Source: an uncultured Bdellovibrio sp. (GTDB taxonomy: Bacteria; Bdellovibrionota; UBA1018). Taken from it: a stretch of DNA of 64,000 bases. Where the stretch lies: assembly GCA_964490895.1 (NCBI GenBank), contig CAZBEI010000065.1, positions 1,192 to 65,191 on the forward strand. The letters run 5' to 3'. This document shows positions 1,599-27,283 of this stretch, piece after piece. The stretch's first letter is position 1, and the number at the start of each line of letters is the position of its first letter. A program made the translations under genes and the position numbers. The notes under the pieces are model-generated. The model worked only from the letters and a program-made list of their open reading frames with translations. It was not told the origin of the DNA and did no database searches.

Positions 1599-1639
1599 AG
1601 ACCTTACATAACATTACAACTACTCCTCAGCCACCACTC

Positions 1640-1800
1640 TTCGTGCCCAACCGGACCTCAACTATTCTTATCTTGTTCCAATTCCAGCTGCGCGAAGTTC
1701 TTTCTCGCTTACAGTTCCAGCTTTACAGCAATCAAGAAGCTTTCCGTCCACGACCACAGCGGGGACTCTTGTAATGCCGTACTGCTTTGCCTTATCGTGG
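1640..1800 (-). pseudogene. Fragment of a thioredoxin/glutaredoxin-like gene (and merT 5' end), decayed copy of the 46296-46568 locus
   Basis: About 80-85% nucleotide similarity to 46290-46470; no intact ORF. Confidence 0.4.
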
Positions 1801-2037
1801 CACTCGTTGGTATCAGGTTTTAGCCTGGATGAAATTCAAAGCCTTCTCAACCTCCGAGTCCGCTCCGTAAAACGTTGTAACCAGGTCAGATTCAAAGCTG
1901 AGCAAAAACTAAAGGATGTTCAACAAAAGATGGTGCACCTAAAAAAATTGGAACGTACTCTCAAGAGTCTCGTTTCAGACTGTGAAAATCGCGTGGTCTC
2001 TGATTGTTGCCCGATTATTGAAAAGATGGAGGTTTAG
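1774..2037 (+). pseudogene. MerR-family regulator C-terminal fragment; the N-terminal HTH is missing
   Basis: The translation GFSLDEIQSLLNLRVRSVKRCNQVRFKAEQKLKDVQQKMVHLKKLERTLKSLVSDCENRVVSDCCPIIEKMEV is about 85% identical to the C-terminal half of the intact MerR at 46675-47088. The DNA-binding half is absent. Confidence 0.55.
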
Positions 2038-2039
2038 AG

Positions 2040-2858
2040 ATGGCTGAGCTGAGGCTTATCTACTTTGAGGGATGCCCGAATGCTGAAAGAGTGAGAAGGA
2101 GTTTGGAAGGTACGGGTTATAAGTTTGATGAGGTGATTTTTGGAACGACCACTGGTTCAGAGGGCGGATGCTCATTGGAGATTCCAACGACTCAAGAGAT
2201 TCAAGCCAAGATAGTCGAGGCTGGTGTTAGGGAGACAAAGAAGGCAAAACTTCTTGCGCCAACAGGTTCCCTTGGTTCAATTATAACTGTCATTCTTTGC
2301 CCAGTTTGTAAACCCGCCATTGCGGCGCTCTTAGGATCAGTTGGTCTTGGTTTCGTTGTGAATGAATCAATCTTACAATCTGTTCTGGTTATATTCTTAG
2401 CTCTCACAATCGGCGGCCTGTTATGGTCTTTCTTGAAAGTACATCGCAATATCTGGCCTGTGATTCTTGGAGCAACAATGTCATTGGCGCTTTATCTGGG
2501 CCGCTATGTTTACTTTGGATATATGGAAAACAATGTTTTGACCTATGGAAGTATCGCTGGCCTCGTGGCAGTGAGCATTTGGAATTTCAGACTAAAAAAA
2601 AAAACACCTGTGGTTCGTGTACCAATACAGGTCCTTGAGTTGATTGGAGTAATGATGAGAAAAATTATTTTGACTTTATTGATGGCCATTCCTCTTCAGA
2701 TTTTGGCAGAGAAGTCAAAAACAACTTTTCTCGTGGAGGGGATGACATGCGCATCATGCGCAGGATCGATTGAAAAATCAGTTAGGAAAGTTCCTGAAGT
2801 AGATTCGGTGAACATTTCGGTAAAAGCAGGAAAAGTCACTGTCGGGGAATCAAAATAG
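2040..2858 (+). CDS. Mosaic ORF: thioredoxin-like N-terminus, membrane segment with CPVC motif (MerT-like) and a truncated C-terminal HMA domain (GMTCASC, MerP-like); possibly a fused or decayed MerT-MerP
   Basis: Single 272-aa frame. An internal signal-peptide-like MMRKIILTLLMAIPLQILA precedes the HMA motif. The HMA domain lacks its last ~20 aa. An A11 homopolymer lies at 2594-2604. Confidence 0.3.
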   Translation: MAELRLIYFEGCPNAERVRRSLEGTGYKFDEVIFGTTTGSEGGCSLEIPTTQEIQAKIVEAGVRETKKAKLLAPTGSLGSIITVILCPVCKPAIAALLGSVGLGFVVNESILQSVLVIFLALTIGGLLWSFLKVHRNIWPVILGATMSLALYLGRYVYFGYMENNVLTYGSIAGLVAVSIWNFRLKKKTPVVRVPIQVLELIGVMMRKIILTLLMAIPLQILAEKSKTTFLVEGMTCASCAGSIEKSVRKVPEVDSVNISVKAGKVTVGESK

Positions 2859-3261
2859 AAAGATGCGCCCGACCGATGGACCAAAGCGATTACGTCTCGG
2901 TTTTACTCTGACTTGACAGCAGGCTTGATAAGTCGAGTATTCTTAAGAAGCGCATGAAAGTTCAAATCCCATCCAATTCCGAAATACTTCGGTGGAAAAA
3001 CTCTGTCGTCATCTAAAGAAACCACTTTTTCCTGACAAATTGTGGAGTCTCGTCGTATCAACGGACAACCTAGACATGTGGTTTTGCTCACGTTGGGGAA
3101 TATCCTCGATCCCAATGTTCAGAAAATGCAAGGTCTCAAAAAATCCTGGGTTTGATCAAAAATTACAGGTAAATGTCAATTGACAGCCCAAAGCTCTTTC
3201 GAGGATATTTAACTTTACTTTTTGGATTCAATTATATAAAATAGATCCTATAAGTAAAAAT

Positions 3262-3834
3262 ATGAAGCTCAACAAATTGAAACAAAAAGGAAAAATGGTC
3301 TTTAATACTGAGGATGCACGAAAGATTGGAATTTCGCGACAACTCATTGCCCATTATCTCCATCAGGGATTGATTATACGACTTTCCCATGGTGTCTATC
3401 GTCTAGAAGGCACTGAGAGCATTGATTTTGAAGAACTGATTAAAGAGGTCCTAGCCGCTATTCCAAACTCCGTCATCGGTCTAAAAACGGCTCTAAGAAT
3501 CTATAACCTTACCGAAGAGCTGCCTTCCGAAATTGATATCATTGTGCCCAAAGAAAATGTTCCAAAAAGGAGGCTCGAAAACGTGCGTCTCTATCGCATC
3601 AAAGGGAATATTTATCGACACGATGTAAAACAAATCCATGGACTGCCCGTAACATCTCCTGAAAGAACAGTGATTGATCTTCTTAGATTCAATGAACCCA
3701 TGTCACTCATTTTGGAAGTCCTTGCTGAAGCGAAACAAAAAAGTATTGCCATTAGCATTCCTAAACTTAAAAAGATGAGTAAAATGTTTAGGGTTCAGGG
3801 AAAAATGAAGCAACTTCTTGAGGCGTGGGTATGA
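3262..3834 (+). CDS. AbiEi-family (type IV TA antitoxin-like) wHTH transcriptional regulator
   Basis: 190 aa. N-terminal wHTH (FNTEDARKIGISRQLIAHYLHQGLIIRLSHGVYRL) and a conserved C-terminal TSPERTVIDLL block typical of AbiEi. No AbiEii nucleotidyltransferase follows it. Confidence 0.5.
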   Translation: MKLNKLKQKGKMVFNTEDARKIGISRQLIAHYLHQGLIIRLSHGVYRLEGTESIDFEELIKEVLAAIPNSVIGLKTALRIYNLTEELPSEIDIIVPKENVPKRRLENVRLYRIKGNIYRHDVKQIHGLPVTSPERTVIDLLRFNEPMSLILEVLAEAKQKSIAISIPKLKKMSKMFRVQGKMKQLLEAWV

Positions 3835-3843
3835 CAAAGTGGA

Positions 3844-4074
3844 ATGAAAAGGATTTACGAACTCGTCTATCCACCATACTCCTCGACTTTGATGGTTGCA
3901 GAAGGACTAGACTTAAAAACAGTCAAAGAAATCTGTGGTCACAAAGATATCTCCACACCAATGACGGTTGTGCACTTGAGTTGCAGATTGTATTACAAAT
4001 GTTGCAAAAGTATTCGCAATAGTGCCTGCTGCAACATGTCCAAAGCTTCGTCTTGTCAGTTAGTTTTTGAGTGA
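3844..4074 (+). pseudogene. Tyrosine recombinase (phage-type integrase) C-terminal remnant, frameshifted
   Basis: LMVAEGLDLKTVKEICGHKDIST matches the integrase fragment at 62665-63024. A 1-nt indel destroys the catalytic Tyr region. Confidence 0.6.
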
Positions 4075-4101
4075 GGGCAGAGTTCTGAACATGGTTAGAC
4101 A
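3885..4101. repeat. Left copy of an ~215-bp imperfect direct repeat (integrase 3' end plus ~40 bp downstream)
   Basis: Aligns with 62848-63061 with ~10 mismatches and a 1-nt indel. The last ~100 bp are identical, then the flanks diverge sharply at 4102 / 63062. Confidence 0.7.
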
Positions 4102-4185
4102 TCCGTTAGACATCCAAAAAATTAAATTTTTAGTAGTATTATTTAGTTTTTTATACTATTTAAAACTACAAAGAGGTGAGTCACT

Positions 4186-4398
4186 ATGGGATTGCCCCAA
4201 ACAGTACGTTTTGATGATGATTTAGAAAAGAGAGTGAAAAAATATTTAGTTCAAAATAAGATAAAATTCCCCCAGCTTGTGAGGCTTGCTCTGGAGAAAT
4301 TTATTTCGGAGCCTCAGACATTAACTTTTATGCCAACAGAAAAAAGAGCTGACCCAGTCAAGCCAAAGTCTGTGCATAGAGGTCCAGGGAGAATTTAA
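4186..4398 (+). CDS. Small ribbon-helix-helix (CopG/Arc-like) DNA-binding protein
   Basis: Strong RBS AGAGGTGA 8 nt upstream. The N-terminus QTVRFDDDLEKRVKKYLVQNKIKFPQLVRLALEKFI fits a beta-strand plus two-helix RHH pattern. Confidence 0.45.
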   Translation: MGLPQTVRFDDDLEKRVKKYLVQNKIKFPQLVRLALEKFISEPQTLTFMPTEKRADPVKPKSVHRGPGRI

Positions 4399-4416
4399 CA
4401 AACTTAGGAGGTTTTT

Positions 4417-4638
4417 ATGTTTATGTCTAAGTTAATGTCATGGTTAATTACAGTTGCAATAATGCTCGCTTCAATTGGAGTTCTGGGGAAGGCGACTCTG
4501 TACCTAGCCATAAAAGCAGCAGAGTCTTGTCAATATGAACAGTTTAGTCTTGCAAAGTGGAATAGAGCTTTAGTGGGGCCCGATACTGTGGGTGCTCATT
4601 CAAAAAACAGGAATAAAGACGCTAAAGGCCACCATTAG
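4417..4638 (+). CDS. Small single-TM membrane protein
   Basis: RBS AGGAGG 7 nt upstream. Hydrophobic helix LMSWLITVAIMLASIGVLG. Paired with the RHH gene. Confidence 0.4.
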   Translation: MFMSKLMSWLITVAIMLASIGVLGKATLYLAIKAAESCQYEQFSLAKWNRALVGPDTVGAHSKNRNKDAKGHH

Positions 4639-4809
4639 AGAGAATTCTCCTTTCCAAATGCTTCGAGCCGTTTTTGAATGCAGTCTCTGATTTCTCTAAA
4701 TGAACGAAGACGGTCTTCCTTGGTGGTGCCACTTGACCCAGGATCAGAAAAGGGCCTTTATCTTGGCACTTCCTAGGATATTGCTGCACGCAAAAGCCCG
4801 TGTTTGTCG

Positions 4810-5154
4810 TCAACTTTGAGTAAAGAGCTGATAAAACGGTGGAAATGTTGTGAGCAATCCAAATAATACTAATCCAAATATGATTTTGAGCCAAAATGTT
4901 TCATCTAACTCTCTTTTTTTCATAAAGGTGTTCAAGATAAGCCACCCCATGAAATAGATGAGCACTGCTACACTGGTTTTGCCTGAAAGAGGGCCCACCG
5001 GATCGTAAAAATTTAGAGCAGGCTTAATCATTTTTGGACTTACCTCAGCTAAAATGGTGAGGATGCCCAGAGACGCGCTGCCCATTCCTGCAGCCATCAA
5101 AGCGGCGATCGGTTTTCCGTTTGGAACTAATTGATGTCGAGTAGAAGTCATCAT
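4810..5154 (-). CDS. Hypothetical integral membrane protein
   Basis: 114 aa, three hydrophobic segments. Last gene of the tightly packed minus-strand operon 4810-10012. Confidence 0.4.
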   Translation of the reverse strand: MMTSTRHQLVPNGKPIAALMAAGMGSASLGILTILAEVSPKMIKPALNFYDPVGPLSGKTSVAVLIYFMGWLILNTFMKKRELDETFWLKIIFGLVLFGLLTTFPPFYQLFTQS

Positions 5155-5169
5155 TTTATTCTCCTTTTA

Positions 5170-5700
5170 TTAACGAGTTGCAGCGACTTTGTTGATAAAA
5201 GCTCCAAATAGACCAGCCACTGCAGCAGATGCAAAGGTGATAATGAGAAGCCAAAACAGGGTGCGTCGCATGCGTGGGAAATCCTTAATTCGCTCCCCAT
5301 AATATTGAGCGCTATAGGCGATAGAGGTTAGAAGCATTGGAGCGATCCATGCCACATGCTCTTTCCATTCCATTCCAAACTCATGCCATTCTTTCGTGTT
5401 TGGTTTTGAAAGAAGAAAGTACCGAGGAAAATTAAACAGCTCAGTCCCAGCTACAGGTTTTGCCCGGTACCAGACATAGACAACCCAAGTACCCGTGATC
5501 ACCGTGCCCCAGGCAATGAGGGCCATAGCCCAAAGCCCAAGTTTCAGTCTTCGGCTGTTTTCCATAGCCCCTTCGGGGGTGATCCAGGAAGCCTTGAGTT
5601 CATATAGATCTGCAATAGCGCCGCCAAAAGCCAGCAGAAAGACTGCACCTAAAACCATTCCATGCAACACTGTCCAAATTTCTCGAATACTTAATTCCAT
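5170..5700 (-). CDS. Hypothetical integral membrane protein
   Basis: 176 aa, four predicted TM helices, Trp-rich loops. 16-bp gap to the downstream gene. Confidence 0.45.
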   Translation of the reverse strand: MELSIREIWTVLHGMVLGAVFLLAFGGAIADLYELKASWITPEGAMENSRRLKLGLWAMALIAWGTVITGTWVVYVWYRAKPVAGTELFNFPRYFLLSKPNTKEWHEFGMEWKEHVAWIAPMLLTSIAYSAQYYGERIKDFPRMRRTLFWLLIITFASAAVAGLFGAFINKVAATR

Positions 5701-5719
5701 GTGAGACCCCCTTTTAAAT

Positions 5720-6685
5720 TTATCTCAAATCAGTCACCACTTCTTTATTTTTGAGTATAAGTCGATAATGATATTGTGGATAGTTTTTGCTGAGAATTTT
5801 CTTGGCTTTTTCCTTATCCATAACAAAAGTTGCGGTGGACAAAATGTCACATACCATTGCAGATGGGCCGAGAATGGTTGTGTACAGAAATGCTTGTGCC
5901 GGTCTCAGTTTTTTTGGATCAATGAGATGGTGCCACTTTCCATCTTCAGAATAGCTCTCATTTTCTATGCCCGAAGAAGCAATGGATTCATTCTGAAGTT
6001 CGACCGGAAGGGTGCCCCGAGAGAGTGGATTATAAATCGCCACATTCCATTTTTTCCCATTTGCATGTTCTCCTTTGAGCTTTATATTACCTGAGAAATT
6101 AACCAGATAAGAAGTAATCCCTTGTTGCTCTAAGTAATTTGAAACCAGGTCAACGGCATAACCCTTAGCAATTCCGTCAAGTGTAATTGCCATCGCAGGA
6201 GTGGCAAAAGAAATCTGGTGTGCAGAGACTCTAATTTTACGATAATCAATAAGCAACTTGAGTCGGTCAAGAGATTTTTCGTCAATCAAACCAGAGCCAT
6301 TTTGAAAATGTTTTTTGATCTCCCGCAGGAGTGGCCAAACCGTGATATCAAAGTATCCGTCTGTCTTAGCTCCAGCTTCGATGGCGATTTGAATTATTTT
6401 TTTAAAATGAGTGGAGGGTTCTTCAATAAAGCCTTTCTCATTTAAACGAGAAATTTCGCTATCGATAAGGTAGAGGCTCATTGAGGCTTCTAGGTCATCC
6501 AGTATTTTTTTTATATCGAGCTGATGTTTTTTAGCTTCGGCTGACAAGCATGGATTTACGTACTGAATTTCGAAAACCGTACCCATGCTTGGAATGTGGA
6601 CTATGTGATCACAAAGTGGAGATGCCTGAAGTGGTATACCCATCAGTCCGAGCCAAAAAAAGTATACACTCCACTTAAATTTCAT
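5720..6685 (-). CDS. apbE: ApbE-family FAD:protein FMN transferase (flavin transferase) with signal peptide
   Basis: 321 aa with signal peptide. Contains the MAITLDGIAKGYAVD block matching the ApbE signature. Confidence 0.7.
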   Translation of the reverse strand: MKFKWSVYFFWLGLMGIPLQASPLCDHIVHIPSMGTVFEIQYVNPCLSAEAKKHQLDIKKILDDLEASMSLYLIDSEISRLNEKGFIEEPSTHFKKIIQIAIEAGAKTDGYFDITVWPLLREIKKHFQNGSGLIDEKSLDRLKLLIDYRKIRVSAHQISFATPAMAITLDGIAKGYAVDLVSNYLEQQGITSYLVNFSGNIKLKGEHANGKKWNVAIYNPLSRGTLPVELQNESIASSGIENESYSEDGKWHHLIDPKKLRPAQAFLYTTILGPSAMVCDILSTATFVMDKEKAKKILSKNYPQYHYRLILKNKEVVTDLR

Positions 6686-7130
6686 TTAATATCCATTCTT
6701 TTAGCATTAATAATTCGTCCATTCCGCTGGTCCAAATCTCTCCTCCATCATGGCCGGCACCTTTATTCTGGACTTTGATAAACATCAGACTCTTTTCAGG
6801 GTCTTTTGGCGTAATTTTCTTTAGACTCGACAAGTAATCTTTTTCGGCATCTCCAGTTAAATCAAAAGGCTCTCCCATTCCTTTGTGACACTCAAAACAC
6901 TTGGCTTGCATGTAGGGATAAACTTTTTTGATAAAAACCTGTTTCCCATTGGGAACGGGGGGCGGACTCTCAGTGTTTTTTGGTGCTTCTTTTGGTGAAC
7001 CTGTTTCGGGAGGCTTTGCAGGAGGATTATCAGTTGTCTTTGATGGAGCTGGCAGCCCACGCTTAAAGGGGTGGTCTGCACCACAGGAAAATAAAAACAG
7101 GACAGAAAAAAAAGGGATTAATTTATTCAT
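6675..7130 (-). CDS. Mono-heme c-type cytochrome lipoprotein
   Basis: Lipobox LFSC, a Pro-rich linker, and a single CFECH (CxxCH) haem-binding motif. Confidence 0.5.
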   Translation of the reverse strand: MNKLIPFFSVLFLFSCGADHPFKRGLPAPSKTTDNPPAKPPETGSPKEAPKNTESPPPVPNGKQVFIKKVYPYMQAKCFECHKGMGEPFDLTGDAEKDYLSSLKKITPKDPEKSLMFIKVQNKGAGHDGGEIWTSGMDELLMLKEWILNEI

Positions 7131-7138
7131 ATCAGCTC

Positions 7139-7684
7139 CTATTTTCTAGACTCCTCTTTTTTTAGTACAAAGGCATTAAAAGCAAAACTTGATTTCCTCA
7201 CAGCCTCTGATACGGCTCGAGAGGAGCGCGTAGCTCCTGAAACTGCATCAATGTCGCTTCCCACTTGAAATACCTCCGATGATTTTTTTCCTGAGAATTG
7301 TTTCAGGAACCGAAGTTCTTTTACGGGCTTGCCTCTTTCTTCGGAATATTCGATCACGCGAACAGATCTGATAATTCCGTCTGACTCAAAGCAAACTCCA
7401 ATGGTCATTGGGCCTTCTTTTCCTTCTTGAGGCACAACAGTACAGGCGACTTTTAGATGATCTTTTTCATCTTTTCCAAAATAAAATGTAAAAGAAGCAT
7501 CCGACGAAGTGTCTGCAAGTGTTTTTAGCTTTTTTAATTGTTCTGTGTTTAATACAAATGTCTCTTTAGTTTTTTTAGGAACGCTCGATAGAAATTCTTT
7601 TAGAAAATCTCTTGGTTCTTGCACTATCTCTCCTAAACAGAGGCAAGCAAAGAATGAAAATAAAATAAAGTGATAAAGTATCAT
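7139..7684 (-). CDS. FMN-binding domain protein (NqrC/RnfG/NosR-type FMN_bind), membrane-anchored
   Basis: N-terminal TM helix. C-terminal DAVSGATRSSRAVSEAV matches the FMN_bind flavinylation motif (Thr/Ser target of ApbE). Confidence 0.55.
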   Translation of the reverse strand: MILYHFILFSFFACLCLGEIVQEPRDFLKEFLSSVPKKTKETFVLNTEQLKKLKTLADTSSDASFTFYFGKDEKDHLKVACTVVPQEGKEGPMTIGVCFESDGIIRSVRVIEYSEERGKPVKELRFLKQFSGKKSSEVFQVGSDIDAVSGATRSSRAVSEAVRKSSFAFNAFVLKKEESRK

Positions 7685-8266
7685 CTATACCTCAACTGTG
7701 CCAAGGCTACGAATTTCAGGCCGTCGAAAGACTTCAAATAAAATGACAATCCAAAGCAAACCAAATGATACGGCCATCAGTGTTCCAGCTGCCGCCGTCA
7801 AATAGGCAAAAGACGGGCCTAGCAACCGAGTCACAATAAAACTTAAATTATCTAGTACAATGGTCAAATAAGGCACCCCAACTAAGGCTGTCTTAAATTT
7901 AGTCCCAACTCCTGTAAAAAGGGCCAACAACGTTAATCCAAAAAAGAAACTTGTCATCCCAAATAGATGGAAGTGTCCTTCGGCTACAAATTTTTTCATG
8001 CCCGGTTGCGAAACAGGAGGAGCCACCGTAGCTGTTTTAGCATCCAAGTCGAATGCTTCTTCCTTCTGTGCCACAACATTTGTTTTAATTTTTTCAGACG
8101 CTCCATAGTAATGAAGCGCGATTTGATCTGGTTTTAGACCTACGACCAGCGCAACATTGACGAGAGCGTAAATATATCCTGCAGTCAATGATAGCAAGTA
8201 TCCTAGAACAAGCGCTTTTAGAGGAAGAGGGGCATTTCTTAATTTAAATCTAAAAAATTCGTTCAC
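7685..8266 (-). CDS. Hypothetical integral membrane protein
   Basis: 193 aa, four or five hydrophobic helices. Abuts the FMN-binding gene with no gap. Confidence 0.45.
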   Translation of the reverse strand: MNEFFRFKLRNAPLPLKALVLGYLLSLTAGYIYALVNVALVVGLKPDQIALHYYGASEKIKTNVVAQKEEAFDLDAKTATVAPPVSQPGMKKFVAEGHFHLFGMTSFFFGLTLLALFTGVGTKFKTALVGVPYLTIVLDNLSFIVTRLLGPSFAYLTAAAGTLMAVSFGLLWIVILFEVFRRPEIRSLGTVEV

Positions 8267-8275
8267 TTTTTCTCC

Positions 8276-9316
8276 TTAAAAATCAAGCGCAAACATCAGA
8301 CGGAATAAATCATTGGGTTTTTCATCAAGTGCTTCGAGGTTCCATTGGTATTCGAGTATAAATTTCATAACGTCGATCGGAAATACAAAAGACAAATCAA
8401 AAGAGTGTGAATCTTGTTGGCTTTTTTGCTGTGAATTATTAATGTAAGTCCCATAGCGAATTCGAGGCTCAACAAAACCTAAAGCATTTGTTGCCAACTC
8501 AATATAATCTCCATATTTTCTAAAATTTCCTAATAATCCCTGAAAAATTTTAGCATCAGCAAAACCCAGTCCTAATTTTAGGTTTTTTAAAACCGGGAGA
8601 TTGACAAGATGATAATCAGTCCATAGGTCTCCTCCTAAAAGAACGAGAGGTTTTCCAATTTGCCACTGTGTGTAGTAACCCGATAGAATGAGTTTAATCT
8701 TTTCGAATGGAAATCCTGAGAGCCTGAGTCCCAGGGCCTGGGTGTTTGGGTCCGCGGGCAAGTTTAATTCTACGTCTTTGTCAGCTTTAGGTTCTCCAAA
8801 ACCATTGACGAGATAAGTATCTAAATTCCATTGATTTATCTCAAAGGTAAGTATGGCCCCATTTTCAGCCCAAATATTGGGAAACATCACTCCTTTTGCA
8901 GCAAATCCTTGTACACCCCCATAAAGATGATGGTAACGAGAAGTATCTCCAAAAGGGATCAGCACTTTTCCAAGATACGCTATTATTTTTTCAGTTGGCT
9001 TATAAATAATTTCTAAAAAACTTTTTGAGATGATTTCTCCTAAAAACGAAACTTTTTCTGAAGCATTGAGTTTTAAAAAAACTAAGAAATGATTATTTTT
9101 AAAGGTGTCATTTTGTCTGATCAGAGAAGGATTTTGATAGGGAGAAATTTCGTAAGACAAATCTAGTCTCCCTATCAATTTGAAAGGGATTTTTTCAGCT
9201 TGTGTGTTTACGTGTTTTGGAACTATTTCGGGAGAGTCTAGGTCTAAACTTTCCTCAGCCCATCCTTCAGAGAGCAGTAAAAAAACAAATAAGCTTAGTA
9301 AACCTATTTTTTTCAT
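8276..9316 (-). CDS. Putative outer-membrane beta-barrel protein
   Basis: Signal peptide, alternating amphipathic strands, C-terminal ..FALDF ending in Phe. Confidence 0.5.
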   Translation of the reverse strand: MKKIGLLSLFVFLLLSEGWAEESLDLDSPEIVPKHVNTQAEKIPFKLIGRLDLSYEISPYQNPSLIRQNDTFKNNHFLVFLKLNASEKVSFLGEIISKSFLEIIYKPTEKIIAYLGKVLIPFGDTSRYHHLYGGVQGFAAKGVMFPNIWAENGAILTFEINQWNLDTYLVNGFGEPKADKDVELNLPADPNTQALGLRLSGFPFEKIKLILSGYYTQWQIGKPLVLLGGDLWTDYHLVNLPVLKNLKLGLGFADAKIFQGLLGNFRKYGDYIELATNALGFVEPRIRYGTYINNSQQKSQQDSHSFDLSFVFPIDVMKFILEYQWNLEALDEKPNDLFRLMFALDF

Positions 9317-9325
9317 TCCGTACTC

Positions 9326-10012
9326 CTAAGGCTCTTTTTTGAGAAGAGTCTCACCCACTCTTTTCCAATCACCAGGGGCTGTAAATTTTAAAGTATTCAT
9401 TATTTTTTGTATGTTAGAAAGTATGTCGTTTGCCCTGTAAATAGTGACCTCATAGTTATCTCCTTGGTCTTTTGATATTCCAGTCCACACAAAAAACCAC
9501 TTGTGCGGTACTCCTTTTAGTTGATAGACAAAACTAATAAGGTGGGGGGATTGTGGGTCGTTTGGATTTTCTTGCCAGTCTCGACTCCATATTTGGCTGG
9601 ATTCGAACTCATTTTTTCCCATGATTTTTTGATCAGTATGAATCACTAATCGTTGCACGTCATTTTGTTCATAGTAAATATCTGCATTCCCTGTGATTTT
9701 AAAGGTGTGCCCTAGGGTCGGAGTGAGTTCAATTTTTTCAGTTTTAAATCTTAAAGTGGGATCAGGAGACATCACTTCGTCTACTTTTAGGTCATAGGCA
9801 CCTTCGAAAGAAGAAGCGAGCTTCAGATCTCGATCTGTGAGTATCCCAATTAATCGCCCCTCTTCTTGGACTGGAAGGTGTCGAATTCGATACTCCCTCA
9901 TCATCTCAAGTGCTTTTTTTAAACCGATATCATTCCCAATAGAATGTGGCATTGGGGTCATGTATGTTTGAATTTGAGGTATTTGTTTCATCTTTCTTTC
10001 TCCTTGAGTCAA
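9326..10012 (-). CDS. CBS-pair domain protein with uncharacterised C-terminal domain
   Basis: The N-terminal ~130 aa show two CBS motifs (HLPVQEEGRLIGILTDRDL). First gene of the minus-strand operon. Confidence 0.55.
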   Translation of the reverse strand: MTQGERKMKQIPQIQTYMTPMPHSIGNDIGLKKALEMMREYRIRHLPVQEEGRLIGILTDRDLKLASSFEGAYDLKVDEVMSPDPTLRFKTEKIELTPTLGHTFKITGNADIYYEQNDVQRLVIHTDQKIMGKNEFESSQIWSRDWQENPNDPQSPHLISFVYQLKGVPHKWFFVWTGISKDQGDNYEVTIYRANDILSNIQKIMNTLKFTAPGDWKRVGETLLKKEP

Positions 10013-10184
10013 ATCTTTAAATGATTCTTAAAGAGCATTAGCAAATTCTAGGCCATTCGATACAAGCTACAAAAAATTGAAATAAAAAATAGGACGGGAC
10101 ATTTTGGCGCAGAAGTTGTTTTTTATGTCCCATCTCAACTTTTAAAAGAAATCCATTTGGCCTTGTTTACTCTAGCCATATAAG

Positions 10185-10200
10185 TGGCATTGATTGTGCA
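10185..10200 (+). promoter_or_regulatory. Sigma-54 (-24/-12) promoter-like motif TGGCAT-N5-GTGCA upstream of uspA
   Basis: GG and GC separated by the canonical 10 nt. Lies 37 bp upstream of the ATG at 10237. Confidence 0.45.
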
Positions 10201-10236
10201 TACTCTTCTTAAAAATACGGGAGGTGTTAAGACAAT

Positions 10237-11152
10237 GAAAATTCTTTGGTGCTTAGATGTATTTGAAGAAAAAAATGATATTTACAATCGCACAATCAAT
10301 GTTTTAGAGAATATTACAAAAGAACACGCAAGCTCAATTGAACCAGTCTACCTATTGAGCCCAGAGCAATTCGAGCTGCCTGTTGAGTTTACTCCGTCTT
10401 GGGTAGAGCACTATCATCCAAAAGCAAAAAAAGCAGCCGAGAATAAACTTAAGGAGCATCCCCTGCCTGGTCTTTTGCCTATAAAAATTATAGGCCACGA
10501 AAAGCCCTCAATTTCGGGGTCCATTACTTCGTTGCTCAATTATGCTAAAAAAGAAAATGCGAACCTCATTGTAGTTGGATCCCACGGCAGAAGGGGGCTC
10601 TCAAGACTTTTCGTGGGGAGCTTTGCAGAGGCACTGCTCCTTCGGTCTCCTCTTCCTATTATGATTGTGGGACCCCACTCCATAAATGTTGACGGATTTA
10701 AAGAAATCCTATTCCCCACAGATTTGGGTGAAAATTTTTATGGTGTTTTTAGAGAAGTTTTAAAATTAGCTGGGCAATTAAAAACAAAGCTTACTTTACT
10801 TCATGTCATTCCTAACCCCATTGAGCCAGTGGTACAAAGTGGCGCTTTTTTATTAGGTGGAGGCTGGGTACCGATTTCAGGTTATCTGGAGAAAGAGGAG
10901 AAAAAGCAGAGAGAAATTGCTGAGCGTTGGATCAGAAAAGCAAAAAGCCATGGGATAGACGCTCAGTTTGTTTTAGATTATTCAAAACATGGGGTATTAT
11001 CTGCTATCCACGAGCATGCAAAAAACCATTGTTTTATTGCAATGGCTGCTCAAAGTGGGCCTCTTTCGGCTGCATTTTTAGGAAGTATCACCAGGCAAGT
11101 TGCAAGGTCAGCTTCTTGTCCAGTATGGTTAGTAAGAGAAAATGTGTTATAA
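10237..11152 (+). CDS. Universal stress protein, tandem UspA domains
   Basis: RBS GGGAGGTG 9 nt upstream of the ATG at 10237; the track ORF starts earlier at 10184. Two Usp domains with ATP-binding-like G-x2-G-x9-G(S) (VVGSHGRRGLSRLFVGS). Confidence 0.7.
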
Positions 11153-11162
11153 AGGATAGAGA

Positions 11163-12599
11163 ATGATTACTCCCACAAAAGGAAAGGTCCTCATAGTAGA
11201 CGACGACATGGAGATGAGATCACTTCTTGAGGATTATCTCAAGAGTGAAAACTTTCAAGTAAAAAGCTTTGCAAATGGCGTGGAGGCCCTTGAAGACTTA
11301 GAACTCCAGAGCTCTGAGACTGATTTAATTATTTCAGATATTAAGATGCCCCAAATGGATGGGTTAGAACTTACTTCAAAGCTCACGCACATTTTACCCA
11401 AAATTCCGATTCTATTAATCACTGCTTTTGGAAGCATCGAAACAGCACTTGAGGCCATGAAAAGAGGCGCATTTCATTATATTGTAAAACCTTTCAAACT
11501 TGCCGAAATGGCCGTGCATATTGAGAAGGCTTTAGAACATAGAAGACTTCAAAGAGATAACGAGGCTCTTCGAAAAGAGATAAAACAGTCCTGGGGTTTA
11601 GGAAATATCCTTGGAAAAAGCCAGGCCATGAAATCGGTCTTTGATTTAGTAACTCGTGTTTCTCAAACAACCGCGAATGTGCTCATCATGGGTGAAAGCG
11701 GGACAGGCAAAGAAATGGTAGCTCGCGCCATACACAAAACGGGCCCCAGGGCTCAAAAGCCTTTTGTTGCTATCAATTGCACGGCTATTCCCGAAACTCT
11801 TTTAGAGTCAGAGCTCTTTGGACATGCAAAAGGGTCTTTTACGGGAGCGCATCAAAGAAAACAGGGACTCTTCGAAGAGGCTGAGGGTGGGACTCTCTTT
11901 TTAGATGAGATTGGGGATATGGATGGCACTCTTCAATCTAAACTACTCAGAGTGATTCAAGAAAAGAAAGTCAGAGCTGTTGGAGACAACACGCTTCGAG
12001 ACATCAATGTAAGAATTATTGCAGCTACTCATAAAGACTTAAAAGCAGCGATGAAAGATGGCCGCTTTCGTGAAGATCTTTACTACCGCTTGAGCGTTAT
12101 TCCTATTTTGATTCCGCCCTTAAGGGAACGAAAAGAAGATATCCCATTATTGGCAGAGCATTTTTTAAAAAAATACTCTGCTACAAATAACACAAATGTG
12201 CGTGGATTCACAAAAAGCGCGATGAATAAACTCCTCACCCTGCGTTGGGAAGGGAACGTGCGCGAACTTGAAAATATTATTGAAAGGGCTGTTGTTTTGA
12301 GTTCTGGCACTTTCATTGACGAAAGGGACTTGCCCTCTCCAGAAACTCAAAATCCAGAACAGTTTTTTTCTTCTTCTACAGGAGACTTCCCTACGATCGA
12401 TCAACTCGAAAAAAGATACATGGGTCTCGTGCTCGAAAAATCAGGAGGCAGAAAAGACAAAGCAGCACAGATTTTAGGGATTAATAGAAGGACTCTCTAC
12501 CGCAAAGAAAGAGAATATGGCTTTATTACAGAGCAAGGCGATGAAATCCAAGAACAAAGTGATAAAATCCAAGAGGAGGAGGAGACTAAAAAACTTTAA
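11163..12599 (+). CDS. Sigma-54-dependent Fis-family response regulator (NtrC-like: REC + AAA+ sigma-54 activator + HTH)
   Basis: REC domain with phospho-acceptor Asp (LIISDIKMP). Walker A GESGTGKE. GAFTGA-type loop GSFTGA. C-terminal Fis-like HTH. 10-bp gap after uspA, so cotranscribed. Confidence 0.85.
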   Translation: MITPTKGKVLIVDDDMEMRSLLEDYLKSENFQVKSFANGVEALEDLELQSSETDLIISDIKMPQMDGLELTSKLTHILPKIPILLITAFGSIETALEAMKRGAFHYIVKPFKLAEMAVHIEKALEHRRLQRDNEALRKEIKQSWGLGNILGKSQAMKSVFDLVTRVSQTTANVLIMGESGTGKEMVARAIHKTGPRAQKPFVAINCTAIPETLLESELFGHAKGSFTGAHQRKQGLFEEAEGGTLFLDEIGDMDGTLQSKLLRVIQEKKVRAVGDNTLRDINVRIIAATHKDLKAAMKDGRFREDLYYRLSVIPILIPPLRERKEDIPLLAEHFLKKYSATNNTNVRGFTKSAMNKLLTLRWEGNVRELENIIERAVVLSSGTFIDERDLPSPETQNPEQFFSSSTGDFPTIDQLEKRYMGLVLEKSGGRKDKAAQILGINRRTLYRKEREYGFITEQGDEIQEQSDKIQEEEETKKL

Positions 12600-13776
12600 A
12601 CCAAATTGTAAAAACACTTCCCACTCCCAATTCACTCAGGACAGAAATTTCGCCACCCATTTCCTTTAGCAATTGAACAACAATTGCTAAACCCAAGCCT
12701 GTACCTTCTCCCACGTCTTTTGTAGTAAAAAAAGGTTTAAAAAGCTTATTTGTATTTTTTGGGTCAATCCCGCAACCGGTGTCCTTGATTTCAATGGCCA
12801 CTTTTTGCCCATGAACACTTGCTTTAATGTACAGTTGGTGTCCTGTTTTTCTTCCATCTCGAATCGCCTTATGAATGGCTTGAATCGCGTTCATCACTAA
12901 ATTTAAAATCGTTTGTTCTAAACGCCCATAATCTGCTTTTACTTTTATTTCGTCTGAGATGTCTGTCTTAATTTCTACTCCATCTTCTTTAAGATTTTGC
13001 CCTACGAGAGACAAAACCTCGTGCACAACTTGTGTAATGCTCACTTCTTCAATACGAAAATCACTAGTCCTTCGCCCCATTCTTAAGAGTGAACGAATGA
13101 GCTTAGAAATTTTATCAATTTGAGAAATAATAATTTCCAAATCTTTTTTAGGTAATTCGTCTTTGGACTGTAATATTAAAAACTCAGCTCTTCCACGAAT
13201 CACTCCAAGCGGGGTGCCCACTTCGTGCGCAAGACCACTCGAGAGCAACCCAATGGAGGCAAGTCGGTCTTGATGAAAAATTTTTGCCTCAAGTTCTTTT
13301 TTCTGAGTCATGTTTAGAGCCACACCCATGTAGCCTAAAATTTCGCCCATTTCTGACTTAAATGGAGTAATGGTCAAAAATACGGGCACATACGTTCCAT
13401 CTTTGGCACGATTGACGAGCTCGCCTTTCCAATGTGCAATTTTAGGGTCCCGAATTTTTGACCACATTTCTCTGTAAAACTCTTTGGATTGGAACCCAGA
13501 ATGCAAAAGTCCGGGAGTTTGCCCAATGGCTTCTGCATTAGAATAACCATAAGTTTGGCTCCAAGCAGGGTTGACGTAGACCAGATGACCGTCTTTGTCA
13601 CTAATCATGATGGTTTCATTGCTGTCTTCGACACATCTAAAAAAGATATTTTTGGGATCGAAATTAATCTCTAAGGGCATGAGTCCTTTTAACATCATTT
13701 CGACGTTCTTGACAGCACTTGTCTTATAAGGACGAGAAAAAATGTCCTTTTTTTTTGATTTTTGGGACAAAAACAC
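12586..13776 (-). CDS. Soluble PAS-domain sensor histidine kinase
   Basis: PAS domain (MISDKDGHLVYVNPAWSQTYGYS), HisKA H-box LAHEVGTPLG, and HATPase_c G-boxes (DTGCGI, GTGLGL). Its 3' end overlaps the response-regulator stop by 14 bp, convergent. Confidence 0.8.
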   Translation of the reverse strand: MFLSQKSKKKDIFSRPYKTSAVKNVEMMLKGLMPLEINFDPKNIFFRCVEDSNETIMISDKDGHLVYVNPAWSQTYGYSNAEAIGQTPGLLHSGFQSKEFYREMWSKIRDPKIAHWKGELVNRAKDGTYVPVFLTITPFKSEMGEILGYMGVALNMTQKKELEAKIFHQDRLASIGLLSSGLAHEVGTPLGVIRGRAEFLILQSKDELPKKDLEIIISQIDKISKLIRSLLRMGRRTSDFRIEEVSITQVVHEVLSLVGQNLKEDGVEIKTDISDEIKVKADYGRLEQTILNLVMNAIQAIHKAIRDGRKTGHQLYIKASVHGQKVAIEIKDTGCGIDPKNTNKLFKPFFTTKDVGEGTGLGLAIVVQLLKEMGGEISVLSELGVGSVFTIWFKVF

Positions 13777-13814
13777 CTCCCCCTGGTTTTCATGAAGCCT
13801 GAAACCGGGTCACT

Positions 13815-13830
13815 TGGTTTCACTTATGCA
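13815..13830 (+). promoter_or_regulatory. Sigma-54 promoter-like motif TGGTTT-N5-ATGCA upstream of cytochrome c
   Basis: GG..GC spacing is correct. Shares TTATGCA at -12 with the nirK motif. Lies 40 bp upstream of the ATG at 13870. Confidence 0.4.
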
Positions 13831-13869
13831 ACTTTGGTGCTAAAGTAAAAGTCTAATAGGAGATCAAAA

Positions 13870-14226
13870 ATGCACAAAATAAAATGCTTGGTTGGATTGG
13901 GTTTTATATTTTTGTATCAGGGAGCTTCGGCAGGTCCTCCAAAGTCTTCGCCCGAACTTATTGCAAAAGGAAAAGCCTCTTATGTGACCAACTGTTTGAC
14001 CTGTCATGGCGAAAATGGCGATGGCAATGGTCCTGCTGGACAGTACATGAATCCAAAACCTAGATCCTATACAAAAGATAAGTTTAAAAAGGGAGAGAAA
14101 CCTGAACAGGTTTTTAAAACCATTACAGCAGGGATTGATGGAACAGCAATGACTGGGTTTGGTCATTTGCCAGAAGACGAAAGATGGGGCCTTGTGTATT
14201 ACGTGCTTTCGTTTAAGAAAAAATAG
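13870..14226 (+). CDS. Class I c-type cytochrome (secreted, mono-heme), likely electron donor to NirK
   Basis: Signal peptide, CLTCH haem motif, distal Met region. RBS GGAG 9 nt upstream. Confidence 0.7.
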   Translation: MHKIKCLVGLGFIFLYQGASAGPPKSSPELIAKGKASYVTNCLTCHGENGDGNGPAGQYMNPKPRSYTKDKFKKGEKPEQVFKTITAGIDGTAMTGFGHLPEDERWGLVYYVLSFKKK

Positions 14227-14230
14227 CTAC

Positions 14231-14590
14231 TTACTCCAATTGTTTTATTTCTAGTTCGGGCATCTCTATCAAAAAAGCACGTGAAATCTCGCCAAAAGAA
14301 GTACCTTTTTGATAGACAAAGCTGGCCGCAGATTGTTCTGGAGCAAACCTCAAAGTTTTTGAATCCACAGCAGAAATTTTAGAAAACGCTTTCTTGAGGA
14401 GAGGAATTTGTTCTTTTGAGTGAAAGCCTTTGATTTCAATGACTACATAATGATTTCTAGTTTTTTCTGCCATTCTTTTATTTTTGTAAGAATAAACAGA
14501 AGCGGCCTTATCCCCCACACAAAAACCACAGGCAATGGCCTGAACGTGTGCCACTAAAAACAAAAACCCAGCCAAATAGATTATTTTCAT
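14231..14590 (-). CDS. Hypothetical small lipoprotein (CGFC motif)
   Basis: 119 aa, signal peptide with AIACGFC. No recognisable domain. Confidence 0.35.
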   Translation of the reverse strand: MKIIYLAGFLFLVAHVQAIACGFCVGDKAASVYSYKNKRMAEKTRNHYVVIEIKGFHSKEQIPLLKKAFSKISAVDSKTLRFAPEQSAASFVYQKGTSFGEISRAFLIEMPELEIKQLE

Positions 14591-14725
14591 ACCTCTCTCT
14601 TATTCATAAAATGGGCCAAGCAAAAAACCTAATTATTTTACTCTCTCAAGCTTAAAACAGAACCACAGATGGGACTAAATGTCACTCGCATGAGGCATAT
14701 TTTCTTCCTGCCGTGGCTTCTATTT

Positions 14726-14746
14726 TTTAAATCTAACGGATTTAAA
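14726..14746 (+). promoter_or_regulatory. Perfect 8-N5-8 palindrome TTTAAATC-taacg-GATTTAAA upstream of nirK (candidate regulator or IHF-type site)
   Basis: Seen directly in the sequence, 12 bp upstream of the -24 element of the nirK promoter motif. Confidence 0.3.
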
Positions 14747-14757
14747 GGGTTTTTTTT

Positions 14758-14773
14758 TGGCAAGGTTTATGCA
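14758..14773 (+). promoter_or_regulatory. Sigma-54 promoter-like motif TGGCAA-N5-ATGCA upstream of nirK
   Basis: Canonical GG/GC spacing, 31 bp upstream of the ATG at 14804. Confidence 0.45.
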
Positions 14774-14803
14774 TTTAATAAGACTTAATAGGAGGGTTTT
14801 ATC

Positions 14804-15829
14804 ATGCGTTTGGCCATTTGTTTTTTTGTGTTTATGTCTGGAAATTTATATGCGGGGGATAATCCTGACCCCTCAAAAATGATTTTTGGCCCACCCCCAG
14901 CCATTGTTCATAATAAAATTTTAGAAGGTCCTGTGATGCAGGGAGCAACGCTCCTTCCATTTGCTCCTAAACTCTCTGGTGAGCGAACCCTCAACGTTCG
15001 CTTGGATGTCACTCACAAAGTTCAAGAACTTGCAGATGGAGTTAAAATGATGGTTTGGACGTTTGGAGATTCTGTGCCAGGTCCAACTATTCGAGTCAGG
15101 CAGGGGGATCGAATTAAATTCACAATGGCAAATCGCAGCACTGAAACTGCAGCCATTACTCCTCCCATGCCTCATTCGATGGATTTTCATGCCTCTATGG
15201 TGAGCCCACAAGACAAATTTAGACCCATCTCACCGGGGCAAACATTAGAATTTGAATTCGTCGCAAATTATCCAGGGGTATACATGTACCACTGTGGAAC
15301 ACCCATGATTTTACATCACTTAGCAATGGGAATGTACGGCGCTGTCATTGTAGAACCCAAAGAAGGGTATCCCACAAAAGTAGACCGCGAGTATGTTCTT
15401 GTTCAGTCAGAATTTTATCCCCAAAAAAATGTGAATAAAAATGGAAAGAAAACAAGTGTGGTCGAATTAGACATGAACGCAGTTATCCACAAACAGGCCT
15501 CTATTGTTGCTTTTAATGGAAAGGCCTTTCGCCACCGTGACGAACCGCTCAAGGCAAAAGTAGGAGAAAGAGTGAGGCTCTTTGTGCTCAATGCAGGACC
15601 CAGTGGGACTTCGAGTTTTCATGTTGTTGGAACCATTTGGGACCGTGTTTGGCTTGAGGGAAATCCAAGCAATGAACTTCGAGGAGGTCAATCTGTGCTT
15701 TTAGGCGCAAGCAACTCAGCTATCGTTGAATTTATTATTCCAGAAAAAGGAAAATACATTATGGTCGATCATGAATTTGCTGACGCTAATGCAGGAGCAC
15801 TGGGATTAATTGATGCAACAGGAGATTAG
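14804..15829 (+). CDS. nirK: Copper-containing nitrite reductase NirK
   Basis: 341 aa with signal peptide. Cu-ligand blocks PHSMDFHA and YMYHCGTPMILHHLAMGMYGAVIVEP match the type 1 / type 2 copper sites of NirK. RBS AGGAGGG. Confidence 0.85.
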   Translation: MRLAICFFVFMSGNLYAGDNPDPSKMIFGPPPAIVHNKILEGPVMQGATLLPFAPKLSGERTLNVRLDVTHKVQELADGVKMMVWTFGDSVPGPTIRVRQGDRIKFTMANRSTETAAITPPMPHSMDFHASMVSPQDKFRPISPGQTLEFEFVANYPGVYMYHCGTPMILHHLAMGMYGAVIVEPKEGYPTKVDREYVLVQSEFYPQKNVNKNGKKTSVVELDMNAVIHKQASIVAFNGKAFRHRDEPLKAKVGERVRLFVLNAGPSGTSSFHVVGTIWDRVWLEGNPSNELRGGQSVLLGASNSAIVEFIIPEKGKYIMVDHEFADANAGALGLIDATGD

Positions 15830-15842
15830 CACAGAGTCAAAC

Positions 15843-16022
15843 GCAGCATGAGGGTTCTTCGGCTGCACTCTGTTCAACAGCACGGTGAATATAGTATTTA
15901 AAACACGGCTCACATCGTGCCGAGATTGCCCAGACCATCGCTGTGAGGATCTTAAATTTTTGAGGCGCTTCCCCATCAGAAAAAATAGCCCTCTTCCTCA
16001 TTTGGTCAATAGGCGTTGGTAG
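15843..16022 (-). pseudogene. Fragment of a second carboxymuconolactone-decarboxylase (CMD/AhpD-like) gene, in frame immediately after the stop of the upstream CMD gene
   Basis: Translates to LPTPIDQMRKRAIFSDGEAPQKFKILTAMVWAISARCEPCFKYYIHRAV-EQSAAEEPSCCV. This is about 90% identical to 45253-45627 but lacks the first ~24 codons and has a 39-codon internal in-frame deletion. Confidence 0.55.
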
Positions 16023-16619
16023 CTACTCTGGCTCTAAACGGGTCGGACAAAACCCCTGAGGTGGAATTTTTAGGGCCGCATTAAACTTACTCGAAAGGTT
16101 CTGATAAGCGATGAGAGCTGTCAACTCAATGATTTGGTTTTCATCAAAATGTATTTTTAAACGCTCAAAGAGTGTGTCCTCAATTTTTTTGTCAGATCGG
16201 GTCATTGCCTCCGTGTAAGCTAACGCTGCTCTTTCCTGTTCAGTATACGCAGGATCGCTTTCATAATTTGCTAAAGCCAGTATTTTTTCCATGGGCACCC
16301 CACGCTTCTGTAAAAGAGCACTATTAATATCAATACAAAAGGAGCAGTGATTAATCTGCGAAACACGCACAGTCACAAGCGATCTCAGTGCGGGATTTAG
16401 CGGAGAATTTTTTCTGTCGATTGCACTATAGAGAAATTGAAGCCCCATCAAAAGACGAGGCGAACGTCCCCAAAGTCGTGTAGGCTCAAGACTCGATCCA
16501 TACTTTTTTTTCTGTGCTCGAAAAATTAAACGCACCCAAAATGGGTACTCCCTTTCTGGTTTAGCTGCAATTCTCATAGGCTCCCCTTTCATTTCTGCAA
16601 GAATATCACTTTCTCTCAC
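16023..16619 (-). CDS. Carboxymuconolactone decarboxylase (CMD/AhpD-like) family protein
   Basis: 198 aa. HCSFCID CxxC-type motif and helical CMD-family pattern. Confidence 0.6.
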   Translation of the reverse strand: MRESDILAEMKGEPMRIAAKPEREYPFWVRLIFRAQKKKYGSSLEPTRLWGRSPRLLMGLQFLYSAIDRKNSPLNPALRSLVTVRVSQINHCSFCIDINSALLQKRGVPMEKILALANYESDPAYTEQERAALAYTEAMTRSDKKIEDTLFERLKIHFDENQIIELTALIAYQNLSSKFNAALKIPPQGFCPTRLEPE

Positions 16620-16738
16620 ACTTATATGTGCAAATATTTTTCAAGTCTCTTAATTATGGCGGGACATTTTGCCGCAAAATTTGTTTTTTTGTCTCATCAT
16701 GATTTTAAAAAACTCTTTTACTGCTTAAATAATTACAT

Positions 16739-16754
16739 GGCACTGATTATGCAT
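16739..16754 (+). promoter_or_regulatory. Sigma-54 promoter-like motif TGGCAC-N5-ATGCA upstream of the PLP-decarboxylase gene
   Basis: Near-consensus -24/-12. Lies inside a ~170-bp block duplicated from the uspA upstream region. Confidence 0.5.
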
Positions 16755-16821
16755 GTTAATCTTAAAAATAGGGGGCGAACATAACAAATTCTTTGGTACT
16801 TCATTCATTTGAAGCAAAAAA

Positions 16822-27179: not shown

Positions 27180-27267
27180 AAAAGCAAGATTGTGACAAAA
27201 AGGTATAATTAGAGAATTATTGTCTCATTTTTTTTCCAACATTAGAAACTTTATGCTTAATCCCACC

Positions 27268-27283
27268 TGGCATATTATTTGCA
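27268..27283 (+). promoter_or_regulatory. Sigma-54 promoter-like motif TGGCAT-N5-TTGCA (inside repeated element copy A)
   Basis: Near-consensus -24/-12. A TTGTGACAA palindrome lies ~75 bp upstream (27189-27197). Confidence 0.5.

Follow-up and report, generated by a model that had tools for sequence, protein, structure and literature searches.

Degenerate mer clusters lying beside intact ones are known from C. metallidurans CH34, which carries merRT-deltaP on pMOL30 and merRTPA'A'' on CMGI-1 in addition to its intact clusters (PMC2864759, Table 5). The mer operon of Tn21 and Tn501, with the gene order merR-merT-merP-(merC)-merA-merD, provides a second point of reference. Here we analyse a stretch of 64,000 nucleotides from an uncultured Bdellovibrionota-like genome (the window; positions are counted from its first letter), in which an intact cassette of mer-like genes at 45.2-47.1 kb (locus 2) is accompanied by scattered pieces of such genes, one set at 1668-2920 (locus 1) and a single piece of a carboxymuconolactone decarboxylase (CMD) gene further to the right. 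Two or more mer-like cassettes, distinct from the intact one and of far greater age than any duplication of it, have probably left these pieces as non-functional relics. The process at work is ordinary gene decay; recombination of the intact cassette, 45 kb away, did not produce them.

Identification of the relics

A preliminary description of this DNA had flagged three pieces as degenerate, non-collinear remnants of mer-like genes, and self-BLAST of the whole window together with translation bears this out, placing their homologues in locus 2 (Table 1). A repeat search agrees with the self-BLAST, whose matches are ungapped and plus/plus. The thioredoxin-like (trx) piece (1670-1811 against 46298-46439) is 76.8% identical over 142 nt (E 1.6e-23), the merR piece (1816-2030 against 46867-47081) 78.1% identical over 215 nt (E 3.7e-44) and the CMD piece (15877-16010 against 45416-45549) 84.3% identical over 134 nt (E 1.8e-35). 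Such matches are far beyond chance, and the flagged pieces are real. In amino-acid sequence the relics are 82-84% identical to the genes of the intact cassette.

Several details of the preliminary description stand. A deletion joins the trx and merR pieces at 1815/1816 and has removed the helix-turn-helix (HTH) domain of MerR, which is absent by Pfam, and the CMD piece continues the frame of another CMD gene immediately past its TAG stop (16023-16025). The figures attached to the pieces needed revision. Nucleotide identity had been put at about 85% for trx and merR (measured: 77% and 78%) and at about 90% for CMD (measured: 84%); the trx/merR stretch had been given as 1640-2037, and the CMD piece as some 55 codons at 15843-16022 instead of the 61 codons listed below. 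The CMD piece does lack its N-terminus (22 codons) and does have an internal deletion, the size of which is 41 codons (123 nt) and not 39. Three more lesions in locus 1, in merC and merP, had been overlooked.

Table 1. Relics, intact mer-like genes and neighbouring features of the window
Feature	Position	Strand	Description
trx' relic	1668-1815	-	Codons 44-90 (3' 47 codons) and TAA of a thioredoxin-like gene
merR' relic	1816-2037	+	Codons 65-137 and TAG; dimerisation helix and metal-binding Cys loop
merC' pseudogene	2040-2638	+	75-bp in-frame deletion and -1 frameshift
merP' pseudogene	2652-2920	+	MerP-like HMA gene with its own signal peptide; 3' end decayed
AbiEi antitoxin gene	3262-3834		Next to locus 1; no AbiEii toxin gene after it
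Integrase 3' fragment	3844-4074		76-aa stump of a tyrosine recombinase, behind the AbiEi gene
Phosphatase relic	4638-4757	-	Probable 3' relic (~37 codons) of an ArsC-type low-molecular-weight phosphatase gene; weak match
CMD124' relic	15837-16022	-	61 codons and TGA of a small CMD/AhpD-like gene (CxxC...CC)
CMD198	16023-16619	-	Intact 198-aa AhpD/YciW-like CMD gene; its TAG abuts the CMD124' relic, of which it is not part
CMD124	45253-45627	-	124-aa CMD gene, last in the intact cassette
merP	45638-45931	-	Intact
merT	45943-46299	-	Intact
trx	46296-46568	-	Intact, divergent from merR
merR	46675-47088	+	Intact; Pfam/NCBIfam

The left-hand cassette

By its gene order, locus 1 is assigned to a cassette type trx/merR-merC-merP (the slash separates divergent genes), unlike the merR/trx-merT-merP-CMD of locus 2. 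The contig L066 (ENA ERZ2854929 NODE_4392) carries this type intact, as trx(-)/merR(+)-merC(+)-merP'(+), and the contig L073 (Logan ERR15232711_17181) holds an intact CMD187 and trx/merR-merC-merP-LMWPc. Locus 1 shares 85.1% of its nucleotides with L066 in trx and 72.5% in merC-merP'.

The window copy bears four separate lesions. The first is a blunt deletion of about 430 bp at 1815/1816 (423 bp when measured against locus 2, 439 bp against L066), whose junction shows no microhomology. Missing there are trx codons 1-43, the CxxC active site among them, both promoters with the operator, and merR codons 1-64 with the HTH. The surviving part of trx is 76.8% (nt) and 83% (aa) identical to its intact counterpart. 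The surviving part of merR is recognised by the Pfam domain MerR-DNA-bind only (profile positions 14-65 of 65); it retains the three metal-binding cysteines and the whole coiled coil and is 84% identical (aa) to the intact MerR.

The second and third lesions both concern merC. A 75-bp in-frame deletion at 2133/2134 lies inside the N-terminal thioredoxin-like domain, from which the conserved YSSPT segment is lost; the deleted segment (25-26 residues) is kept in all seven aligned relatives, each of which also has a C-terminal C-x-x-C tail, so that the gap and the lost CxxC tail are found only in the window protein. A -1 frameshift in a run of eleven A (2594-2604) puts the conserved TCGSC C-terminus and the original TGA (2636-2638) out of frame, and the alternative frame after the run still encodes the family C-terminus, ending in KKKNTCGSCTNTGP with the TCGSC motif and a stop. 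At the corresponding site L066 reads A7-CC-A3. The A11 run is of a slippage-prone length, so that different cells or transcripts could have different reading frames. The fourth lesion is a nonsense mutation in merP: a premature TAG (2856-2858), AAG in L066, falls inside the HMA domain. The domain is still recognisable past this codon to about 2920 (VTVGESK-stop-KDAPDRWTKAI), and the profile match stops at position 40 of 62.

The frameshifted merC frame runs on into merP', giving an apparent 'MerC-HMA fusion', a 272-aa open reading frame (ORF) at 2040-2858. L066 holds its best relative. Its 86 relatives of 191-262 aa cover 56-74% of the ORF, mostly about 69%, and the HMA domain occurs in none of them. 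The fusion protein in public databases is a frameshift artefact and a warning for annotation. A metagenome contig scan with the 272-aa ORF as query returned distant HMA-domain matches only and no cassette relatives, a tblastn search of phages with the MerC relative P0002 gave no match, and a search of plasmid DNA was uninformative, with one 87-nt thioredoxin match only.

The CMD relic and its neighbour

The second relic is the remainder of a gene of the CMD124 type, which closes merR-merT-merP-CMD cassettes. Codons 1-22 are missing, the 5' end having been lost at the boundary with CMD198, where the homology begins within about 3-12 nt of the CMD198 stop codon; a further 123 nt are gone internally, between short direct repeats of the GAAGAA type. 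The relic was aligned with 14 full-length members of the CMD124 family (that of the window plus 13 taken from other loci). The ASTMGGCVGEMW block, RCEPC and a C-terminal (S/H)CC are common to all 14; RCEPC and the C-terminal CC are kept in the relic, and the invariant ASTMGGCVGEMW core is lost, so that the complete helical domain with conserved core expected of the CMD/AhpD fold (PF02627) is not there. The match to the homologue in L004 (84% nt over 157 nt) spans more of the relic than the local match (134 nt). Logan gene calling does not report the relic as a gene.

All five decayed genes, trx', merR', merC', merP' and CMD', are thus homologous to full-length genes and lack essential parts. 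Consensus scans found no sigma-70-like promoter site at 1200-2040 and no MerR-type operator dyad anywhere in the window besides that of locus 2 at 46601-46618, leaving the relics without expression signals of their own. The lesions would have arisen by illegitimate deletion, slippage and point mutation once the cassettes had become dispensable, and the presence of an intact paralogous cassette would explain why they were.

CMD198 matches NF053654 (E 5e-46) up to profile position 175 of 179. Its homologues number in the thousands, mostly of 180-200 aa and lacking a tail like the relic; on these comparisons the protein is complete at its TAG. The frame that the relic shares with CMD198 is probably a coincidence, with a chance of 1 in 3. 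Two other readings of this TAG were considered and rejected. Reassignment of TAG, for instance to pyrrolysine, which might be suspected from the in-frame TAGs at 16023 and 2856, conflicts with the completeness of CMD198 and with the use of TAG as the end of 12 of the 57 genes in the window. Programmed recoding at the CMD198 stop finds no conserved extension among the homologues, and the codon is TAG, not the selenocysteine codon TGA.

Separately, redox and metal proteins encoded at 16023-16619, 45253-46568 and 42565-43668 match NCBIfam '(seleno)protein' families. The models include YciW-related proteins, UxxU metal-binding proteins, a MerT/CopZ fusion, ArsM/AhpD and rhodanese-related proteins, and for CMD198 such a model is the best match. 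In the window these proteins appear to be cysteine forms, as they could be read without any in-frame TGA.

The intact cassette and its relatives

Locus 2 contains a perfect dyad, CCCTATAC-N4-GTATAGGG, at 46600-46619 in the merR/trx intergenic region, inside a long-spacer promoter of the kind usual for MerR-type promoters. All mer assignments score below the NCBIfam equivalog cut-offs; the MerR of locus 2, with HTH and three cysteines, reaches 130 against a TIGR02051 cut-off of 150.85. Two hallmarks of the canonical mer operon are missing, MerA and, in the relic, the HTH of MerR. No Pyr_redox-type protein or MerA is present among about 77 ORFs scanned, including every window ORF of at least 400 aa, and no merD turned up among the window ORFs scanned. 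On these profile scores and this gene content, 'mer-like' is the right term for the cassettes.

The set merR, merT, merP and CMD124 was found by genome scan in 12 other genomes, mostly Bdellovibrionota metagenome-assembled genomes (MAGs), a distribution that places the host of the window; one more locus from the scan has a distant CMD124 homologue only. The set also occurs on pMOL30 of C. metallidurans CH34. L003 combines merC, merR, trx, merT, merP and CMD124 in one composite cassette (merC-merR/trx-merT-merP-CMD124). Members of the CMD124 family (window, L003-L014, L072 and L077) measure 123-127 aa and have RCEPC, the invariant block and a C-terminal Cys-Cys. Cassettes with merR-merT-merP and no merA end in a conserved CMD124 gene, and they are found in Bdellovibrionota, in Dyella, in a Pseudomonadota MAG of unclassified position and on C. 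metallidurans pMOL30. The family comprises at least 447 protein clusters, named only as 'CMD family / AhpD'. A literature search combining merT/merP with carboxymuconolactone decarboxylase, and one for the locus tags Rmet_5988-5990, returned no paper linking CMD124 to mer.

A ThiF/rhodanese gene at 42565-43668 was considered as a further member of the mer module and rejected: it adjoins the molybdenum cofactor (Moco) biosynthesis cluster at 36.6-42.3 kb, scores as MoeB-like and has no homologue within 10 kb of the CMD gene in related loci. It more likely belongs to that adjacent cluster, judging from position and profile.

A Cus/Czc-type RND efflux system, made up of an AcrB-like pump, a membrane-fusion protein with an HMBD heavy-metal-binding domain and an outer-membrane factor, lies near the mer-like cassettes in the window (47263-53122), in L003 (12.2-17.4 kb) and in L066 (12.9-17.6 kb). 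Its position and orientation differ in each of the three genomes, which shows frequent local rearrangement of the metal-resistance neighbourhood.

Reality of the junctions

The window appears to be drawn from a metagenome-derived NCBI contig, and the joins between relics and their surroundings might in principle be chimeras formed at collapsed repeats. Three Logan contigs, independent assemblies from two sequencing runs (ERR4904393 and ERR3478687), speak to this directly. ERR4904393_508616 corresponds to window positions 1565-3136, ERR4904393_884414 to 15652-17160 and ERR3478687_1154753 to 15715-17124, each at 100% identity, and together they reproduce the 1815/1816 junction, the merC deletion, the A11 run, the TAG of merP', the 16022/16023 junction and the 123-bp deletion. 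The longest exact word common to a relic and its intact copy is 14-17 nt, and repeat collapse in a k-mer assembler therefore cannot join the copies. Assembly chimeras are thus very unlikely, to the point of being negligible, and the concern that the fragments might be artefacts, raised when they were first described, is not borne out.

Age and origin of the relics

The differences between each relic and its local intact counterpart concentrate at third codon positions (5/5/23, 7/3/40 and 6/5/27 at positions 1/2/3 in the three comparisons). The ratio of non-synonymous to synonymous substitution rates (dN/dS), is about 0.03-0.1, and about 0.04-0.07 in those local comparisons for which it can be computed; synonymous sites are saturated. 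Intact orthologues compared across genomes give matching values. Closer relatives exist elsewhere: for trx', 85% nt in L066 and 91.5% aa in L003, against 77% nt and 83% aa for the local copy; for merR', 89% aa in L003 against 84% locally. Third-position bias, saturated dS and closer relatives elsewhere together mean that the relics are not recent local duplicates. We infer an ancient divergence of cassettes that were then still working, whether they were old paralogues or had been acquired separately. The inactivating lesions would be recent relative to this divergence, since what survives of the genes has kept open frames and codon structure. Replacements specific to the relics number one in trx', none in merR' and five in CMD'; the counts are small, as would fit a recent inactivation, and those of trx and merR do not exceed the values on intact branches.

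These observations are hard to reconcile with a 'second copy' of the intact cassette or with 'duplicated modules', as the pieces had been called, given the old divergence under purifying selection and relatives elsewhere that are equally close or closer. The repeated recombination between modules that had been invoked likewise finds no counterpart, as no junction coincides with a homology boundary between copies and no evidence for recombination between copies was found at any junction. Of the deletions, one is without microhomology and the others lie between short direct repeats. With 77-84% identity and exact words of at most 17 nt, the copies are a poor substrate for homologous recombination with each other.

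An alternative in the spirit of the preliminary description derives all pieces from one second copy of the module, a composite cassette such as merC-merR/trx-merT-merP-CMD, that was scrambled by rearrangement or recombination and then decayed. Such a source exists, as L003 holds all six genes in one cassette, and the trx and merR relics have their highest aa identity to L003. In addition, a homologue of CMD198 precedes the trx/merR-merC-merP order in L073 and L074, where it abuts trx; this adjacency suggests that CMD198 and the left-hand relics were once neighbours, and one inversion of 1668-16022 would restore it. The inversion is speculation: its putative breakpoints carry no inverted repeats, only chance words of at most 10 nt. 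The finer structure of locus 1 also points away from L003. Trx homology ends precisely with the trx stop codon, which matches the terminal position of trx in L066; no trace of merT or merP lies left of 1668; and merC is followed by merP' as in L066 and L073, not as in L003. The saturated dS excludes a recent local duplication, and the low similarity and short exact words that limit recombination with the intact cassette apply here as well, again with no junction at a homology boundary. A single scrambled copy is accordingly judged unlikely.

Coding potential of the truncated genes

Decay of separate, dispensable cassettes is the explanation we favour, and several points weigh against it. No close relative (>95% nt) turned up that still has the alleles as they were before the deletions, and the order and timing of events are deduced from the relics. 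Open relic stretches and low dN/dS are also what continued selection on truncated products would produce. Four features keep or join reading frames: the 75-bp deletion in merC, the 123-bp deletion in CMD, the read-through from merC to merP and the position of the relic next to the TAG. Their joint chance is about 1% by our own estimate, if they are independent, and they were chosen post hoc. Finally, the six-gene cassette of L003 may leave room for a single ancestral composite copy.

The second and third of these points bear on a different view, in which the truncated ORFs are functional. This could take one of three forms. The HTH-less C-terminal domain of MerR (ORF 1774-2037, 87 aa) could dimerise with the intact MerR or compete with it for metal; MerC could be restored by transcriptional slippage in the A11 tract; or the CMD relic could be produced, either by itself as a CxxC/CC mini-protein or by read-through as a tail of CMD198. 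The open frames, codon structure and low dN/dS fit this view, as do the lesions that preserve the frame. The first form gains from the retention in the merR relic of all three cysteines and the whole coiled coil at 84% aa identity. An isolated fragment of Tn501 MerR, residues 80-128, is helical and forms a stable dimer (PMC5027573), and the relic retains the region equivalent to this engineered metal-binding domain, with the coiled coil and the counterparts of Cys82, Cys117 and Cys126. Unlike that fragment, the relic is a natural deletion product, has no promoter or operator and is known here from sequence.

The remaining evidence speaks against functional products. The consensus scans show no promoter-like site or operator upstream, and inspection by eye reveals no clear Shine-Dalgarno sequence before the 54-aa ORF. 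The CMD relic has lost the core that is invariant in its fold, merC part of its thioredoxin-like domain including the YSSPT segment, and merP is interrupted by a nonsense codon. Truncated homologues are absent among the 87 MerC relatives listed and among the best 120 listed for each of CMD124 and CMD198, and TAG is a normal stop here. Overall, functional truncated ORFs appear very doubtful. A particular version, in which upstream read-through expresses the 87-aa domain in translational coupling to merC and A11 slippage restores some full-length MerC, is extremely doubtful. If it were true, the domain could heterodimerise with the intact MerR or buffer metal, damping induction of the intact cassette.

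Genomic surroundings

Between the relics and the intact cassette lie genes for cytochrome oxidase, tyrosine catabolism and a molybdenum enzyme with Moco synthesis. A scan of the window found no tRNA, an Rfam scan nothing, and the G+C content is uniform (38-44.5%), falling to 36% only at 60-62 kb. With no tRNA, uniform G+C and core metabolism in between, the earlier idea of 'island assembly' finds no support for the region as a whole. Within the separating stretch, mobile-element remnants are confined to 3.2-4.1 kb, where the AbiEi gene and the integrase stump lie. A direct repeat of 217 bp (95% identity) at 3885-4101 and 62847-63062, 59 kb apart, represents the 3' ends of tyrosine-recombinase genes at both sites; the right-hand ORF (62665-63024, 119 aa) contains only the C-terminal half of the catalytic domain. 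The pair may be the scars of related integrative elements. The integrases of the window are fragments only, and the DNA inside the repeats includes core respiratory and cofactor genes. In L066, phage-like genes (5'-3' exonuclease, PDDEXK nuclease, HNH/AP2; positions 1-6004) stand directly beside the intact trx/merR-merC-merP cassette, which suggests that this type travels with mobile elements.

The phosphatase relic matches two homologous queries by tblastn with E values of 6e-4 and 8e-4 over 32-33 aa, and stop codons lie upstream in that frame. ArsC-type phosphatase genes flank the mer-like cassettes in L003 and L073.

Three further repeats were observed. An upstream region of about 190 nt occurs at 10087-10281 and at 16652-16828 with 72% identity and blocks of 84%, for example GGGACATTTTG(G/C)CGCA; it precedes a Usp gene (10184) and a gene for a pyridoxal phosphate-dependent decarboxylase (16822). 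The two genes may thus have a regulatory region in common, which could be linked to the sigma-54 activator and histidine kinase nearby. A 140-nt repeat (79%) at 27179-27318 and 29535-29673 lies upstream of two ORFs without Pfam match (27302-28057 and 29657-30466). A 30-nt tandem duplication (90%) at 38543-38602 marks the junction between a moaC/mog fusion gene and a MOT1-type molybdate transporter gene, and the stop/start overlap is duplicated with it.

Comparison with known systems

Taken alone, the finding matters little; redundant metal-resistance cassettes have undergone routine decay by deletion in the genome of an uncultured Bdellovibrionota-like organism. The mer-like cassettes of this lineage come in at least two architectures, trx/merR-merC-merP and merR/(trx)-merT-merP-CMD124. 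The more useful lead is CMD124, the small AhpD-like last gene of merA-less merR-merT-merP cassettes, whose link to mer is testable.

The cassettes of L066 and L073 have the gene order and orientation of window positions 1668-2920 and are intact, whereas the window copy bears four inactivating lesions. Compared with the Tn21/Tn501 mer operon, the cassettes described here share a three-Cys MerR, long-spacer promoters with a dyad operator and homologues of MerT, MerP and MerC. They differ in scoring below the equivalog cut-offs, in having no merA or merD among the ORFs scanned and in the additional trx and CMD124 genes; the window-type MerC, moreover, has an N-terminal thioredoxin-like domain and a C-terminal CxxC. 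The closest parallel is C. metallidurans CH34, where partial, decayed mer clusters and intact ones likewise coexist in one genome and metal-resistance regions lie near mobile-element remnants. On pMOL30, merR/merT-merP(delta) is directly followed by a CMD124-family gene (60% aa identity), and this cassette is of the same family as locus 2 and of the source type of the CMD relic. In the window, unlike in CH34, decay has struck the trx 5' end, the merR HTH, merC, merP and CMD, the host is Bdellovibrionota-like, and there is no transposon of the Tn4378/4380 type.

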